In this document: one piece after another, positions 47,366 to 52,573 of the stretch
Layout: each line of letters starts with the position of its first letter
Numbering within the stretch: position 1 is the stretch's first letter
From: a virus
Lineage: Duplodnaviria; Heunggongvirae; Uroviricota; Caudoviricetes
Direction: 5' to 3' (one strand)
Length of the DNA: 64,000 nt
Virus record (IMG/VR): IMGVR_UViG_3300042009_000026
Coordinates: 64,001 to 128,000 of that record
Notes under the pieces: generated by a model
The model's database searches: none
The model's input: only the letters and a program-made list of their open reading frames with translations
Told to the model about the DNA's origin: nothing
Made by a program: the position numbers and the translations under genes

Positions 47366-48625
47366 ATGTTTACTAACGCTTACAAATTGGCATGTGCTAC
47401 TGGCTTTAAAGGCACAGAACAGGATTTCATCGCCGCTCTTCGCCACGCCCCCAAAAAGGAAAGCAACATGGACTACGGTCAAACCAAACTTTCGTCTGAC
47501 TCCCCTCGTTGTGACTGCTCCGGTTGCAAACCGGCTAATCACAGTACAGCCATGCTGCCTCCAGTATCCATCTCTAAAGAGGAACACCCGATGCAAAACA
47601 TTTCCCCTGATAACTTCATGGCACTGGTCAATTCCCTTCTCAGTGGTGGTCAGCTGCCTCGTTCCAGTGTAACTCCTTCTCTGAGTGAAGCACGTCAGAA
47701 TATGTCAGGTGATATGGGTATGCACTACGCCCCAAATCAACAGTTTGCTGGCGAGCCAAAGAACTATGAGATTCCTGAAAAGATTATTGCATCTGGTCAA
47801 CACTCGACCATTCACAATTTCGTAACACTTAAAATGATTCCAGCTTTCCTGCAGAAGCTGGCTGATGCTATCAATGCATACAGTGGCTTTGATCTGATCC
47901 GTGAACAACGTAAGATCATTGCCCGTCTGAGTAAGCTGATGTCTTACCAGGCTCGTCCAATGAGCATCATTCCAACTGCGATTCATGATGAATTCGAAAT
48001 GAGCATCTATAAGCATTACATTGCTCAGCAGATCTGTTCGACTAATCTTAGCGTAGAAGAAGGCACTAAACGTGTCATCGCCGCACAAGACGCCTTGGAT
48101 GCCCGTCGGGAAGCTTGCCGTATTAATGAAGAGAAGCAAGCAGAAGCTAAACGTGAAAAAGAAGTGCGTACTGCTGCCCAAGATGAACTGGCTGACGTAT
48201 TGAAAGACATGGGTAAGCTTTCCGCTACTGAATTGTCCTTGCGTCTGCGCGGTATTGCCGAACAGGTTAACCCTACTCCAGTTGTTGTGCAGGACAGCAG
48301 CAATCAAACGGTAGCTGCACCAGCAGTAACTGCCAAGGATGCATATAAAGAAGTCCTTGATTCGGTTGATCCAAAGCACTCTGATATCAAGATCAGCCTG
48401 AACCCAGGTAACAGTCGTTCTCTGGATGAGATCATTCCGCCACACATGCGTTTGTTCGGTGCACAGACGCCTCCGCTCACTGCTGAACAGATCTCCAGTT
48501 TCCTGTCTGGTGGTACATTCACTCATGACGGTCGTCGTGGTACTATCGGCCTGCACGATCTGCATCCAATGGATGGCCCTATGGGTCAAGGTATGATGTC
48601 ACACCACTTCGCTAATCAGGATTAA
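47366..48625 (+). CDS. Hypothetical protein upstream of chimallin (gp53 position)
   Basis: 419 aa; AAGGA RBS; AYxxAxxxGFxGT motif, CDCSGC, central coiled coil. Confidence 0.75.
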   Translation: MFTNAYKLACATGFKGTEQDFIAALRHAPKKESNMDYGQTKLSSDSPRCDCSGCKPANHSTAMLPPVSISKEEHPMQNISPDNFMALVNSLLSGGQLPRSSVTPSLSEARQNMSGDMGMHYAPNQQFAGEPKNYEIPEKIIASGQHSTIHNFVTLKMIPAFLQKLADAINAYSGFDLIREQRKIIARLSKLMSYQARPMSIIPTAIHDEFEMSIYKHYIAQQICSTNLSVEEGTKRVIAAQDALDARREACRINEEKQAEAKREKEVRTAAQDELADVLKDMGKLSATELSLRLRGIAEQVNPTPVVVQDSSNQTVAAPAVTAKDAYKEVLDSVDPKHSDIKISLNPGNSRSLDEIIPPHMRLFGAQTPPLTAEQISSFLSGGTFTHDGRRGTIGLHDLHPMDGPMGQGMMSHHFANQD

Positions 48626-48633
48626 AATACTGA

Positions 48634-48795
48634 CAGCTATCATTTAATACAGGAGATTGCCGAAAGGTTCTCGAATGGTTAAGTGTATGGCCCGCACCTT
48701 AGGCGAGTTCACTTAATAGTGTTTGTTGTGTGCTATTATATAGCAGACAAACTCGTCTGAAACCTTAGCGCTTATTGCGCTGTAGTTATAGCCTG
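48634..48795 (+). ncRNA. Candidate structured RNA element upstream of the chmA promoter
   Basis: Four hairpins inside a closing stem, found by eye; expression unverified. Confidence 0.4.
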
Positions 48796-48797
48796 AA

Positions 48798-48825
48798 TGG
48801 AAAAAATCTCAGATCTATATTACTA
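48798..48825 (+). promoter_or_regulatory. Extended early promoter of chmA
   Basis: TGGAAAAAATCTCAGATCTATATTACTA, identical to 59095-59122. Confidence 0.85.
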
Positions 48826-48897: not shown

Positions 48898-50796
48898 ATG
48901 TCGGTAAATTCTAGCAAACCAGCAGCACTGAACGTTCAGCCTACCCAGGCAATCGCTGCTCCAGTAGTAACTCCACAACCACAACCTGCTCAGGTAACAC
49001 AAACAATGCAACCAGCTCTCCCAGTTTCCAATGGTATCGGTGGTCTGAACCGTACCTTCAGCCGTTCCGGTCGTGCCGATGGCAACGATGCCCGCACCAC
49101 CAAAGCTTTCGTAGCTTTCTCTGAAGCTCAGAAAGAAGCAATCGAACAGCAAGATCTGTCGGATACCTTCCACCTGTTCCGTTTCGATCGCACTGCTCAC
49201 CAAGTAGCAATGGCATCGATCCTGGTACTGAAGCTGGTTGATAACCGCGGTACTCCAGCAATTCTGGTTAAAGCTCTGCCGATCGTCGATTCGTCTGCAG
49301 TCGTCAAGCCGAAGACTTTCCAGATCGCTAACGGTTTCAGCACTTTCGATAAGTTCGAAGCCAAGCCTGATTCCGGTGACATCTTCACCCCACTGTACTG
49401 GTCCCGTGTTGTTGCCCATGTTCGTTCCGTAACTGGCCACGCAACCGCTACCGTTTACAATGCTGGTCCACAGGACATTCACGCTGAGTTCGATTTCGAC
49501 GACAAGATCGCCGTACGTAACCTGCTGATCAAAGCAGTGAACTCGGTTGAAGATACCATGGCTCGCCTGAGCGATGAGCGTCCATTCTCCCTGGCTACCG
49601 ACATGCAATCCGCTGACGAAATCCTGGCGGCTACCATCGACTATACTGGTACTCCAGTTGAATCGAATACCGGTATCCCTCAGCGTGCTGATATGGTCGT
49701 AAGCCTGCAGCGCCGGAAGAAGCATGGTCAGCAAACTCAAGAGAACGAGTACTACGATGCTGATTCTCAGCTGAACTCGGTTTCGATGTTCGTCGATCTG
49801 GAATACTCGCCTCAGCAAGTACAACAAGTCTTCGGCATGCCAGCTGGTCCACTGCCACCTCCGTTCATGCCAGCTCTGGTAATCACTGCTGTTAAGCAAG
49901 CGAACTGGATCATGGCTAACACCCCAGAAATGTACTTCTTCGCTCTGGGTAACGCTTACCGTGCAACCAACGGTCAAGGCTGGGCTAAACAGTTCCTGCC
50001 AACCATCGGTCGCATCAAAGATCCACGTGACATCGGTGCTGTTGGTTATCTGTCCCCTACCGGTCTGAAAGTTGAGACCAAGTCGGAAACCTTCACCGAG
50101 CAAGACTTCGCTGGTCTGATGTTCTCCCAAGTTCAGCAGAACCCAGTAGTCATGATCGACCTGAACCGCATGGGCGATAACTCGTTCGTGGAAACCATGA
50201 TCCTGGATTCGATGGGTGGTCCGAACGAGCAAGCTGCTAAAGCTGGCCTGATCCGCATCCTGTGCAATCTGTATGGTCGTGAGAACTTCACCTCGCTGTT
50301 CGATGTGACCAACGAGTGGCTGTTCCGTCCGTACGGCACCGACTTCCACCTGGGCTACTACCCAGATGAGAACGGTGAGAAACGTGACCGTCGTGATCTG
50401 GATACCCTGTACGCACTGAACGCATGTGATGGTGTTGTTGCAGAGTTCATGGACTGGTACGCTGCCAAGTGCAACCCGAACGTCCACGCTGAAGTCCGTC
50501 TGAAGAAGTCGGAACAGTACGACAAGCAATACCTGGGCAACGTGACCTATGCTGGTCGTGTTACTCGTGCCATCATCAACCCTAAACTGGTTGCTGCTAT
50601 GGACGCTGCGCAAGTGAAAGCTGGCATCGCAGTTACCATGGACAATATCGGTTCGGTGTTCGGTGGTCAGCGCTTCCAGGGTAACGTTGGTCTGGTTGGC
50701 ATGAACGTTCAAGGCATTGCCTCGGTCGCTTCCTACATCCAGAACCAAAACGTCTACGCTCCGGCAGTAGGCGGTCAGACTGGTCTGATGTACTAA
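48898..50796 (+). CDS. chmA: Chimallin, major phage-nucleus shell protein (phiKZ gp54-like)
   Basis: 632 aa; low-complexity N-terminal extension; aromatic C-terminus; extreme codon bias; immediately upstream of the nvRNAP beta-prime gene. Confidence 0.88.
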   Translation: MSVNSSKPAALNVQPTQAIAAPVVTPQPQPAQVTQTMQPALPVSNGIGGLNRTFSRSGRADGNDARTTKAFVAFSEAQKEAIEQQDLSDTFHLFRFDRTAHQVAMASILVLKLVDNRGTPAILVKALPIVDSSAVVKPKTFQIANGFSTFDKFEAKPDSGDIFTPLYWSRVVAHVRSVTGHATATVYNAGPQDIHAEFDFDDKIAVRNLLIKAVNSVEDTMARLSDERPFSLATDMQSADEILAATIDYTGTPVESNTGIPQRADMVVSLQRRKKHGQQTQENEYYDADSQLNSVSMFVDLEYSPQQVQQVFGMPAGPLPPPFMPALVITAVKQANWIMANTPEMYFFALGNAYRATNGQGWAKQFLPTIGRIKDPRDIGAVGYLSPTGLKVETKSETFTEQDFAGLMFSQVQQNPVVMIDLNRMGDNSFVETMILDSMGGPNEQAAKAGLIRILCNLYGRENFTSLFDVTNEWLFRPYGTDFHLGYYPDENGEKRDRRDLDTLYALNACDGVVAEFMDWYAAKCNPNVHAEVRLKKSEQYDKQYLGNVTYAGRVTRAIINPKLVAAMDAAQVKAGIAVTMDNIGSVFGGQRFQGNVGLVGMNVQGIASVASYIQNQNVYAPAVGGQTGLMY

Positions 50797-50808
50797 GACT
50801 AGACTAAT

Positions 50809-50979
50809 GAGGTTAACTGGAAAGTACCATGCGAAAGCAAGCGTAACAATTCGGTGAAACCTCTTTAGATCAACCAGTTGGTAAATTGGTGTATTGCCAA
50901 AGCGTCACGATAAAGAGCGGAGGTTAAGTTTCGTGAACGACAATGCATCAGTCCAGGCTCCGTTGGTGGACTGGTTGAT
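50809..50979 (+). ncRNA. Candidate structured RNA (junction plus kissing loop) downstream of chmA
   Basis: Nested stems, a GAAA tetraloop and 7-bp loop-loop complementarity; ends at a UUCG terminator. Confidence 0.55.
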
Positions 50980-50993
50980 AAGTTAGATAGGAA

Positions 50994-51029
50994 TGGCTCC
51001 CTTCGGGGAGCCACTCTTATTTCTTTTTT
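50994..51029 (+). terminator. Canonical UUCG terminator with a U-tract
   Basis: TGGCTCCC-TTCG-GGGAGCCA-CTCTTATTTCTTTTTT. Confidence 0.88.
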
Positions 51030-51052
51030 GTTAATTTGTATCGAGGTATGAA

Positions 51053-52573
51053 TTGGGTCTACATGCTGAAATTGTCGATCACGATCAGCTACTAGCAAGC
51101 CAACGAGGAATCGTAAAGTTTGCTAACGACTACAATGCATCTAATACTGAATCGAAAGAAGAGTTCCAACGAGCTCTGTATTCTCACTTCGATAACGTAG
51201 ATGCCATTGAAGTATCGGCTAGCTGTGAGTGTGGTCATATGGACGAGGCTTATGACCTCGGCGTTGTGTGCAGCAACTGTAGTACACCTGTCGTATCCAC
51301 AGCAAGCCAACCGATTGTTCCATCCATGTGGATGCGTGCACCAGAAGGCGTTCGATCGATGATCTCTCCGGAGTTGTTGATCATGTTGCTGGGACACATG
51401 CAGGGCAAGGAGTTTAACTTCCTAGCGTACTTCATGGACACGACGTATCAATTTGATGCTAATACCATTTCCTCTCGCGAAACAGATCGCAAGGTAAAGC
51501 GACTGCTGCAACAAAACATCCCACGGGGCCTGAACTATTTCATCGACAACTTCGATGCAATTATCAAGTTCTGTATGGACTGCGGTATCATCGGTACGGG
51601 TAAACACGAGTTCTATGAATTCCTGGTACAGAACAAGCATGCCTTGTTCCCAACAGCTATCCCGATTCCAACCAAACTGTGCTTCGTCGTAGAGTCCACT
51701 ACATCTGGTTCTTATATCGACAAGCCTATCGGTCCTGCGATCGATGCTGCTCTCACTATGGGTGGTATCCAGCATAGTCCGATTCCACTGAAGCCAATCA
51801 CAGTACAGAACCGTACTGCGAAAGCATTGTTGCTCATGGCTACATTCCATGAGAACTATAACAAACAACGGATCGCTCAGAAACCTGGTCTGGTTCGTCG
51901 TCATGTTCTCGGTGGTCGTCTGAACTTCACTGCACGAGCGGTAATTACATCGATCAGTGCACCGCATCGTTATGATGAACTCCACATCCCATGGGGTGTA
52001 GCGTGTCAGCTGTTCAAGTATCACATCTTGAATAAGCTCAAGCGGCAAGGCATGACTACAATGGAAGCCTTGGGTTTCCTGTATTCAAATGTGCTGCAGT
52101 ATAACGACCGGTTGAACAGTATCTTCCTGGAACTTATCGCAGAAGCGAAAGAGATTGGTCCAGCAGCTACCTTCCACCGAAATCCAACTCTGCAGCGTGG
52201 TTCTACTCAGCAGTTCTTCATCACGAAGATCAAGACAGACCTGACCGATAACTCGATCTCGATGTCCGTGCTGTGTTTGAAAGCGCCTAACGCCGACTTC
52301 GATGGTGATCAGCTCAACCTGACTCTGATGCCGGATAACTATCTGACTGACGCTACTGAACGAATCGCTCCACACACGTGGGTATTGTCTATTGATGATC
52401 CACATGAAATCTCTGGTAACCTGGAACTCCAAGGCCCGGTAGTGGAAACGATCGTAAACTATGCGCACGAAGATTATCTGGGTGCACCACCTGAAGCGTA
52501 TCGACATCTGTTAGATGAACCATGGACAGAGTTCGTGCCATTCAAGCAGGCTCAATATGAATTCACTGGATAG
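51053..52573 (+). CDS. Non-virion RNA polymerase beta-prime-like subunit with the catalytic motif (phiKZ gp55-like), uninterrupted
   Basis: Zn finger CECG…CSNC, HRNPTLQRGS, APNADFDGDQ; TTG start. Confidence 0.95.
   Translation: MGLHAEIVDHDQLLASQRGIVKFANDYNASNTESKEEFQRALYSHFDNVDAIEVSASCECGHMDEAYDLGVVCSNCSTPVVSTASQPIVPSMWMRAPEGVRSMISPELLIMLLGHMQGKEFNFLAYFMDTTYQFDANTISSRETDRKVKRLLQQNIPRGLNYFIDNFDAIIKFCMDCGIIGTGKHEFYEFLVQNKHALFPTAIPIPTKLCFVVESTTSGSYIDKPIGPAIDAALTMGGIQHSPIPLKPITVQNRTAKALLLMATFHENYNKQRIAQKPGLVRRHVLGGRLNFTARAVITSISAPHRYDELHIPWGVACQLFKYHILNKLKRQGMTTMEALGFLYSNVLQYNDRLNSIFLELIAEAKEIGPAATFHRNPTLQRGSTQQFFITKIKTDLTDNSISMSVLCLKAPNADFDGDQLNLTLMPDNYLTDATERIAPHTWVLSIDDPHEISGNLELQGPVVETIVNYAHEDYLGAPPEAYRHLLDEPWTEFVPFKQAQYEFTG

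Follow-up and report, generated by a model that had tools for sequence, protein, structure and literature searches.

What is encoded in the short interval that separates the gene of chimallin (ChmA), the nuclear shell protein, from the gene of the N-terminal part of the beta' subunit of the non-virion RNA polymerase in a phiKZ-like jumbo phage of Pseudomonas? We addressed this question in a 64,000-nt stretch of DNA (hereafter the window), which corresponds to positions 64,001 to 128,000 of the IMG/VR record IMGVR_UViG_3300042009_000026, a virus record of 317,367 bp with direct terminal repeats. Nucleus-forming jumbo phages have chimallin as their signature gene, the chimallin mRNA being one of the earliest and most abundant to be made after infection. 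An earlier interpretation made without database searches (the sequence-only reading) had described the spacer as a structured RNA of two domains followed by a terminator with a UUCG loop. It had proposed that this RNA is either a non-coding RNA or 3' untranslated region (3'-UTR) element of the shell mRNA that acts in RNA stability or export, or a switch controlling readthrough into the polymerase gene. The coordinates and strings it quoted are all correct, with the small amendment that the spacer (50797-51052) is 256 nt long, versus the 255 nt it gave. The analyses below show that the second of these domains, domain 2 (50869-50979, plus strand), is a genuine structured RNA folding into a three-way junction made of a closing helix P1, a long arm P2, and a very short hairpin P3.

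The fold of domain 2 can be described precisely. P1 is a 10-bp helix that closes the junction (50869-50878 pairing with 50970-50979). It is followed by the junction strand J1/2, UGGUAAA(U) at 50879-50886, which is single-stranded and A-rich and whose first seven bases are invariant in three alignments. The P2 arm (50887-50950) is composed of the helices P2a (50887-96/50941-50) and P2b (50903-10/50931-39) and of an apical loop (50911-30). Its internal loop is asymmetric, with 6 nt against 1 nt: CCAAAG (50897-902) faces A50940. A block of the apical loop, AAGAGCGGAGGUUAAG (50913-50928), which contains AGCGGAG (50916-22), is the same in the window and in all Phikzvirus and Pawinskivirus copies. 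The P3 hairpin, CCA[GGCUCCGUUGG]UGG (50953-50969), contains CUCCGUU (50958-64) and has a stem of 3 bp (50953-55/50967-69) and a loop of 11 nt; it is invariant at 17 of its 17 nt in the 11 distinct sequences. The same layout of P1, P2, and P3 was obtained from the single-sequence folds of five homologues and from RNAalifold.

This architecture confirms the earlier observation in part, because the module is real and its drawing had to be corrected. The stem ATCAAC/GTTGAT, which had been thought to close a junction of three further arms, exists and lies within P1, and what it closes is a three-way junction. The long arm TGTATTG/CAATGCA and its inner helix correspond to P2 and are borne out by strong covariation. 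Another proposed stem, CAGTT/AATTG, is not supported: CAGT forms the inner end of P1, and GGUAAA stays unpaired and unchanged in every homologue. As for the last hairpin, drawn as CAGTCCA/TGGACTG, only its CCA/TGG core stands, the outer pairs being in competition with P1 and P2 and impossible in PA1C. The junction is three-way because the CAGTT/AATTG stem is unsupported and because only the CCA/UGG core is compatible with P1 and P2a.

To establish where else the element occurs, we built a covariance model (R1) from its homologues and searched around 60 chimallin loci and ten whole phage genomes. Domain 2 of the window scores 110.9 bits (E = 1e-27), and the ten other distinct copies score 103-130 bits. 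The window sequence is part of the training alignment of R1; what supports the match independently is the covariation count and the agreement between folds computed separately for the homologues. The element is present in the two nearest relatives of the window, which are an uncultivated phage with a chimallin 95% identical (L014) and a metagenome contig (L056). It is also present in Phikzvirus (phiKZ, PA7, PA02, FBPa36, and W10-2) and in Pawinskivirus and its relatives (PA1C, PS119XW, BRkr, phiHQ, and HPP-Temi). There is always exactly one copy per genome, between the chimallin stop codon and the UUCG terminator, and we found no second copy in the window or in the genome. The element is absent from Psa21, D6, RVTF4, PhiPA3, 201phi2-1, Phabio, Noxifer, and twelve other uncultivated relatives. 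Running R1 with its filters off on PhiPA3, Psa21, Phabio, 201phi2-1, and other uncultivated relatives returned only a partial P2-like arm, in PhiPA3. In pattern scans of broader collections, IMG/VR gave the genomes of PA7 and L014 only, a metagenome collection gave L056 as the one true new member (L055 was a chance match), and none of the six matches in a collection of bacterial genomes fitted the model.

The closest counterpart of domain 2 is the 3' domain of a longer RNA of 330-390 nt found in the chimallin 3'-UTR of phiKZ-type phages (47529-47922 in phiKZ, NC_004629), which is homologous to it. R1 gives these copies 121-130 bits, versus 111 for the window. The junction strand and both loops are identical in the two forms, which occupy the same place between the chimallin stop codon and the UUCG terminator. 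They differ in that all three helices have another sequence, and in that a 5' domain of ~210 nt, found in phiKZ, PA1C, and PhiPA3, is missing in the window, L014, and L056; conversely, only the window has the orphan domain 1 described below. The phage of the window thus shows the conserved 3' domain standing alone and defines its invariant core, and the short form found here sets ~110 nt as the conserved unit, that is, as the minimal construct.

In a blastn search the spacer, unlike the surrounding genes, can still be aligned to phiKZ-type phages. Between the window and phiKZ, the identity is 87% at unpaired positions (40/46) and 42% at paired positions (26/62), when the nucleotide identity is 57% in chimallin and 55% in gp55, the polymerase gene. 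Among the 11 distinct sequences, 98.1% of the cells form standard pairs, versus 28-54% when the partners are slid by one to three columns. Both sides have changed in 20 of the 38 pairs (7 of the 8 modelled in P1, 8 of 10 in P2a, and 5 of 10 in P2b), and the covariation score was reached by none of 500 shuffles. Comparison across relatives, the check put forward in the sequence-only reading, thus strongly supports the pairing of P1, P2a, and P2b. Most of this covariation comes from the lineage of the window, which represents a second deep lineage. Compensatory changes are also found within lineages, at columns 3/106 and 19/78 in the phiKZ group and in P2a of L056. Loops that stay constant on stems that drift with compensation are the hallmark of a functional folded RNA. 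One copy departs from the common helix register: that of PS119XW (L008:1459-1565), otherwise the same as in PA1C, has a one-base deletion in the 3' strand of P2a, which may be a sequencing error.

The loops of P2 and P3 had also been proposed to kiss. The complementarity is real: AGCGGAG (50916-22) and CUCCGUU (50958-64) can form 7 bp, including one G-U, with a predicted energy of -11.3 kcal/mol, and a rough estimate puts the chance of such a loop match in one sequence at ~0.06. Both heptamers are invariant in the 11 distinct homologues, and the three loop changes observed in relatives are all outside the heptamer. For example, the loop of L014 is 1 nt shorter, with a G replacing UU downstream of AGCGGAG, and that of L056 has an A-to-C change upstream. 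Since the loops and P3 are invariant, covariation cannot test the contact, which we regard as plausible. A sharp bend of P2 that would return its apical loop to the junction beside P3 is likewise geometrically plausible.

We then asked whether the spacer could be explained by something already known. It contains only two open reading frames (ORFs), one of 30 amino acids (aa) on the plus strand, which has ACG in place of ATG in PA7 and PA1C, and one of 77 aa on the minus strand, which is frameshifted or stopped in L014, L056, and phiKZ. Neither is conserved, so a small protein-coding gene was rejected, in agreement with the earlier statement that the gap has no credible ORF. Small 'hypothetical protein' genes have been annotated in the chimallin 3'-UTR of Psa21 (MZD04_gp057, L001:1681-1923) and HPP-Temi (CDS0382 and CDS0381, L005:1263-1370 and 1516-1704); these calls overlap structured RNA and are probably spurious. 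ARAGORN identified no transfer RNA or transfer-messenger RNA genes in the window or in six related loci. A search of the window against Rfam 15 gave best matches with E = 0.33-4.4 and 16-19 bits, versus gathering thresholds of 34-115 bits. The best of these (E = 0.33) is spurious and lies on the terminator hairpin, the others lie on the same hairpin or on short strings, and the spacers of phiKZ, PA1C, and Psa21 gave nothing better. The sequence-only reading had likewise recognised no named family.

Two structural candidates were also discarded. The strongly asymmetric internal loop of P2 resembles a kink-turn, and in PA1C, PA7, and PhiPA3 it reads CCA-GA opposite GA beside P2a. However, the tandem G-A/A-G is not conserved: the first G is an A in the window, L014, L056, HPP-Temi, and phiHQ. 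A kink-turn was rejected on account of the first position, which is A-A instead of G-A in the window (50900-01) and G-U in phiKZ. A self-splicing intron or another excised element was rejected because the element is between genes, not within one, and because no joint is seen in the RNA contigs of phiKZ infections. In three such studies, RNA-seq contigs run unbroken through chimallin, the spacer, and gp55, although contigs cannot show ends, strand, or level. The main texts of the dRNA-seq, Grad-seq, and ONT-cappable-seq studies of phiKZ do not mention an RNA at this place (PMC8244752, PMC10914365, PMC8545117), and we found no paper describing domain 2 or the longer RNA of phiKZ-type phages. Domain 2 represents a new RNA family, of a general kind already known.

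The message to which this RNA belongs can be guessed from the distribution of a promoter-like motif. The sequence TATATTAC is found at 48816-48823 (plus strand), 75 nt upstream of the chimallin start codon. It occurs six times in the window, versus 1.8 expected, always on the plus strand (8938, 21032, 24857, 27483, 48816, and 59113), and it is probably the core of the early promoter used by the virion polymerase. The spacer has no copy of it, and there is none between the terminator and the start codon of the polymerase gene. Because the motif is upstream of chimallin and missing from the spacer, domain 2 would be part of the 3'-UTR of the chimallin message. In phiKZ, PHIKZ054 is reported to have early and middle promoters and to be within a six-gene operon (PMC8244752), and no promoter was found for the homologous beta' gene of 201phi2-1, whose nearest early promoter is ~3 kb upstream (PMC11512511). 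We think it most likely that the polymerase gene is expressed by readthrough of the chimallin terminator. The earlier interpretation was partly supported: a structured non-coding region does lie between the chimallin stop codon and a conserved terminator, as expected of a 3'-UTR RNA, and a switch is unlikely, for reasons given below.

We favour a reading on which our belief and our doubt are evenly balanced: domain 2 would be an autonomously folding, conserved 3'-UTR module, offering a common factor a tertiary-locked handle by which to bind the chimallin message. The module would be transcribed from the early promoter of chimallin, most transcripts would end at the UUCG terminator ~5 nt downstream, and a minority would read through into the promoter-less gene of the polymerase subunit. 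In the RNA, P1 would close the three-way junction and P2 would bend at its asymmetric loop, the two halves of ~10 bp bringing the apical loop back to the junction. AGCGGAG would there pair with CUCCGUU in the loop of the short P3, and the invariant UGGUAAA strand probably packs against this contact. Such a compact fold would provide a specific handle at the 3' end of an abundant early mRNA, and it might persist as a processed RNA derived from the 3'-UTR. The factor bound, a host protein of Pseudomonas or else a core protein of the phage, would be shared by all these infections, and its role would be to protect or mark the message, not to control the terminator. A hint comes from phiKZ, where the level of chmA mRNA is unaffected when translation is blocked with an antisense oligomer, unlike that of several bacterial mRNAs (bioRxiv 10.1101/2024.07.31.605949), which fits a protective role.

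To search for a partner, we compared all 1,141 ORFs of at least 60 aa in this genome with three genomes having the module (PA7, PA1C, and G005) and three lacking it (Psa21, D6, and PhiPA3) using tblastn. No ORF of this genome follows the distribution of the module across the six genomes. Since no gene co-occurs with the module, a protein partner, if there is one, should be a host factor or a core phage protein.

Several observations weigh against a protective or marking handle. The search just described identified no partner for it. D6 and RVTF4 have no module at all and other relatives have unrelated ones; the existence of such close relatives implies that the function is dispensable or replaceable. 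Forty invariant unpaired bases are more than a generic stabiliser should require. Covariation is silent on the kissing helix and on P3, which show no variation. The diversity sampled consists of two deep lineages plus minor variants, and many of the compensatory changes are on a single long branch. Finally, the assembled RNA contigs resolve no discrete species, 3' end, or processing site, and one run of raw reads contained none from the phage. A deeply conserved folded RNA on the chimallin message points to RNA-level control or host manipulation that has gone unstudied in a model system otherwise examined at length, and close relatives with and without the module offer natural controls for its study.

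The site between the chimallin stop codon and the terminator holds from 0 to ~450 nt of sequence, is modular, and differs in content even between phages whose chimallins are 85-95% identical. Structured inserts unrelated to domain 2 are found there in Psa21 (435 nt), in a set of relatives (L015 and L017-L021), and in another relative (L016). It is conceivable, and in our judgment unlikely, that this 3'-UTR is an expression slot for RNA 'morons', compact aptamer-like modules carried by the earliest and most abundant transcript of the phage, and that the invariant loops of domain 2 capture a specific factor of Pseudomonas, such as an RNase, a defence protein that senses RNA, or a component of the ribosome. 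The loop of P2 contains a perfect Shine-Dalgarno string, GGAGGU, and P3 contains a CUCC string that resembles an anti-Shine-Dalgarno. If this were true, the swapping of modules would reflect an arms race, and domain 2 would be part of a new class of RNA-based elements for host takeover or anti-defence.

Domain 2 could instead act in trans, if the module and its terminator accumulated as a small RNA whose invariant loops seed pairing with host or phage mRNAs. Its location suits this idea, as it is downstream of the chimallin stop codon (50794-96) and shares the terminator at 50985-51029, which is what is expected of small RNAs derived from 3'-UTRs. The same layout of stop codon, structured RNA, and terminator is seen in the 3'UTR_PHIKZ298 of phiKZ (~100 nt) and in ncRNA1 and ncRNA2 of PAK_P3, which are conserved and have no transcription start of their own (PMC8545117, PMC10914365). 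Two stretches of the module, of 16 and 11 nt, are single-stranded and invariant and might serve as seeds. Yet the sequences of these RNAs are unrelated to domain 2, which has a more elaborate junction fold and a far deeper conservation; they are discrete species on Northern blots, whereas domain 2 is known from its sequence. Elsewhere in the 64-kb window we found no complementary site matching at least 12 of 15 nt. As the two candidate seeds can pair with each other, an internal contact is the better fit, and the main texts of the published small-RNA screens of phiKZ report no RNA here. A role in trans is, on this evidence, quite improbable.

The readthrough switch of the sequence-only reading fares no better. 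In this scenario domain 2 would sense a signal and tune termination at the UUCG hairpin, setting the amount of polymerase beta' mRNA made from the chimallin promoter. The terminator itself is real (50985-51029, plus strand; -23.7 kcal/mol, z = -5.6), with a two-tier GC-rich stem, a UUCG loop, and a U-tract (CUUUUUU) directly after the hairpin, as is typical of intrinsic terminators. The module lies 5 nt upstream of it, and it precedes a promoter-less essential gene (PMC11512511). Moreover, the GGCUCC of the P3 loop is also the hexamer of the 5' arm of the terminator and could pair with its 3' arm in the window, phiKZ, PA1C, and L056, and P3 can be extended at the cost of P1 in the window and in phiKZ. 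Against this, a near-identical terminator follows chimallin in every close relative (Psa21, D6, L014-L021, and L056) whether domain 2 is present or not, and its stem shows compensatory changes in L015 and L056. D6, RVTF4, Noxifer, and several uncultivated phages (L038, L042, and L045-L048) have the same succession of terminator and polymerase gene with spacers of 52-102 nt and no module, and unrelated inserts are at the same site in Psa21, L015-L021, PhiPA3, and 201phi2-1. Relatives thus keep both the terminator and the promoter-less polymerase gene without domain 2.

The details of the pairing also argue against a switch. GGCUCC is found in the terminators of D6 and PhiPA3, which lack the module, so the match is not specific to it, and antitermination through this hexamer was rejected for this reason. 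The alternative extension of P3 is impossible in PA1C, and a local hairpin with a UUCG loop should outcompete a distant 6-bp pairing. We found neither a conserved antiterminator helix nor a conserved pairing that links domain 2 specifically to the terminator, and the 3' strand of P1 has no complement in the latter. In a terminating riboswitch the closing helix would compete with the terminator; here P1 does not, and the terminator stands alone in D6 and RVTF4. The put RNA of HK022 is a known processive antitermination RNA and is, like domain 2, a folded RNA located 5' of a terminator, beyond which transcription must proceed if the downstream genes are to be expressed. The resemblance ends there, since in our case the terminator and the downstream gene persist unchanged in relatives without the module, and the polymerases are multi-subunit enzymes of the phage. 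We consider the switch, like the role in trans, a rather improbable explanation.

It is very unlikely that domain 2 is just a passenger, that is, a cassette of no benefit to the phage inserted at a permissive 3'-UTR site where structured inserts are swapped by recombination between co-infecting phages. The modular content of the site among phages with very similar chimallins is what one would expect under this hypothesis, as are the clean insertion of domain 1 and the retention by PhiPA3 of only a P2-like arm. But the 20 compensatory pair changes and the 87% identity at unpaired positions, when flanking genes have only 55-57%, imply long purifying selection, and the module is single-copy and found nowhere else in any genome.

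Purine-type aptamers and hammerhead-type ribozymes are compact three-way junctions with a distal loop-loop lock. Domain 2 is most improbably a new class of small-molecule aptamer or self-cleaving ribozyme on the chimallin message: it shares with the purine riboswitch aptamer and natural hammerheads a closing helix, two arms, complementary or interacting terminal loops, and a conserved junction strand, and its unpaired bases are extremely conserved, but its arms are very unequal (~20 bp vs 3 bp) and would need a sharp bend of P2, it has neither the core motifs of hammerheads nor an expression platform coupled to P1, it matches no aptamer or ribozyme of Rfam even at E = 10, it is dispensable in close relatives, and the RNA contigs, which could not show one, give no hint of a cleavage-defined end.

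The first part of the spacer has a different history from domain 2. Domain 1 (50804-50868, plus strand) is a stand-alone hairpin with a GAAA tetraloop and a minimum free energy of -22.1 kcal/mol (z = -4.7). The pairing GAGGUU/AACCUC and the UGC-GAAA-GCA hairpin proposed earlier are part of its fold, from which the proposed TGG/CCA stem is missing. At the corresponding site, L014 and L056 have ~5 nt instead of the insertion of ~65 nt. No homologues were found in IMG/VR, where four matches to an 18-mer of domain 1 have unrelated flanks, or in six related genomes, and short-word BLAST gave none in 2.2 Mb of related phage DNA. From its absence in the two nearest relatives and the lack of homologues elsewhere, we infer that domain 1 is a recent hairpin insertion private to this phage and separate from domain 2. 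The two domains do not form the single unit that had been envisaged. Being private, domain 1 is a feature on which comparison tells nothing. The repeat GAGGTTAA that was noted in the two domains (50809-16 and 50920-27) is real. The AACCUC of domain 1 (50858-63) could pair with GAGGUU at 50809-16, with the P2 loop at 50920-27, and, over 5 nt, with the ribosome-binding site of the polymerase gene (51042-46); this three-way potential is specific to this phage.

Other occupants of the chimallin 3'-UTR deserve mention. 201phi2-1 and three uncultivated phages share a second module (L036:4316-4540, L039:4325-4518, L041:4343-4588, and L035:2104-2247), with a conserved hairpin loop CCUAAAUACUGGNUAAA and a stretch ACCAGUUARRUCUGGAC before the terminator; the inserts of 201phi2-1, L039, and L041 also have CCUAAAUACUGG in common. 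This looks like a second RNA family at the same site. A third type of insert (L015:4780-4900 and L017:4780-4900, also in L018, L019, and L021) starts with a hairpin GG(C/T)AGGGTGCGC...GCCCTGCC, and its carriers have chimallins that are 86-89% identical. The chimallin 3'-UTR of PhiPA3 is 515 nt long and contains the P2-like arm mentioned above (L010:4431-4486, E ~0.004). In this arm the internal loop GCCAGAGCG / ACGAC is the same as in the module, the apical loop differs, and the rest of the module is missing; the 5' part of this 3'-UTR resembles the 5' domain of phiKZ. This composition points to the shuffling of modules.

The genes on both sides of the spacer are readily identified. Chimallin (48898-50796, plus strand; Pfam PF25677, E = 8.8e-294) has 88% aa identity with that of Psa21, 86% with that of D6, and ~44% with that of phiKZ, the first two, which infect Pseudomonas syringae, being the closest cultured relatives. 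The polymerase gene (51053-52573, plus strand) is the homologue of phiKZ gp55 and matches the Pfam domain RNA_pol_Rpb1_2. It starts with a TTG at 51053 that aligns with the ATG of gp55, and it has a GAGG ribosome-binding site at 51042-45, separated from the terminator by a gap of only ~25 nt. The spacer as a whole has a minimum free energy of -84.6 kcal/mol, with z-scores relative to shuffled sequences of -4.5 (plus strand) and -3.0 (minus strand). Another hairpin-rich stretch lies at 48634-48795, just 5' of the promoter-like motif of chimallin, which is therefore flanked by structured non-coding DNA on both sides.

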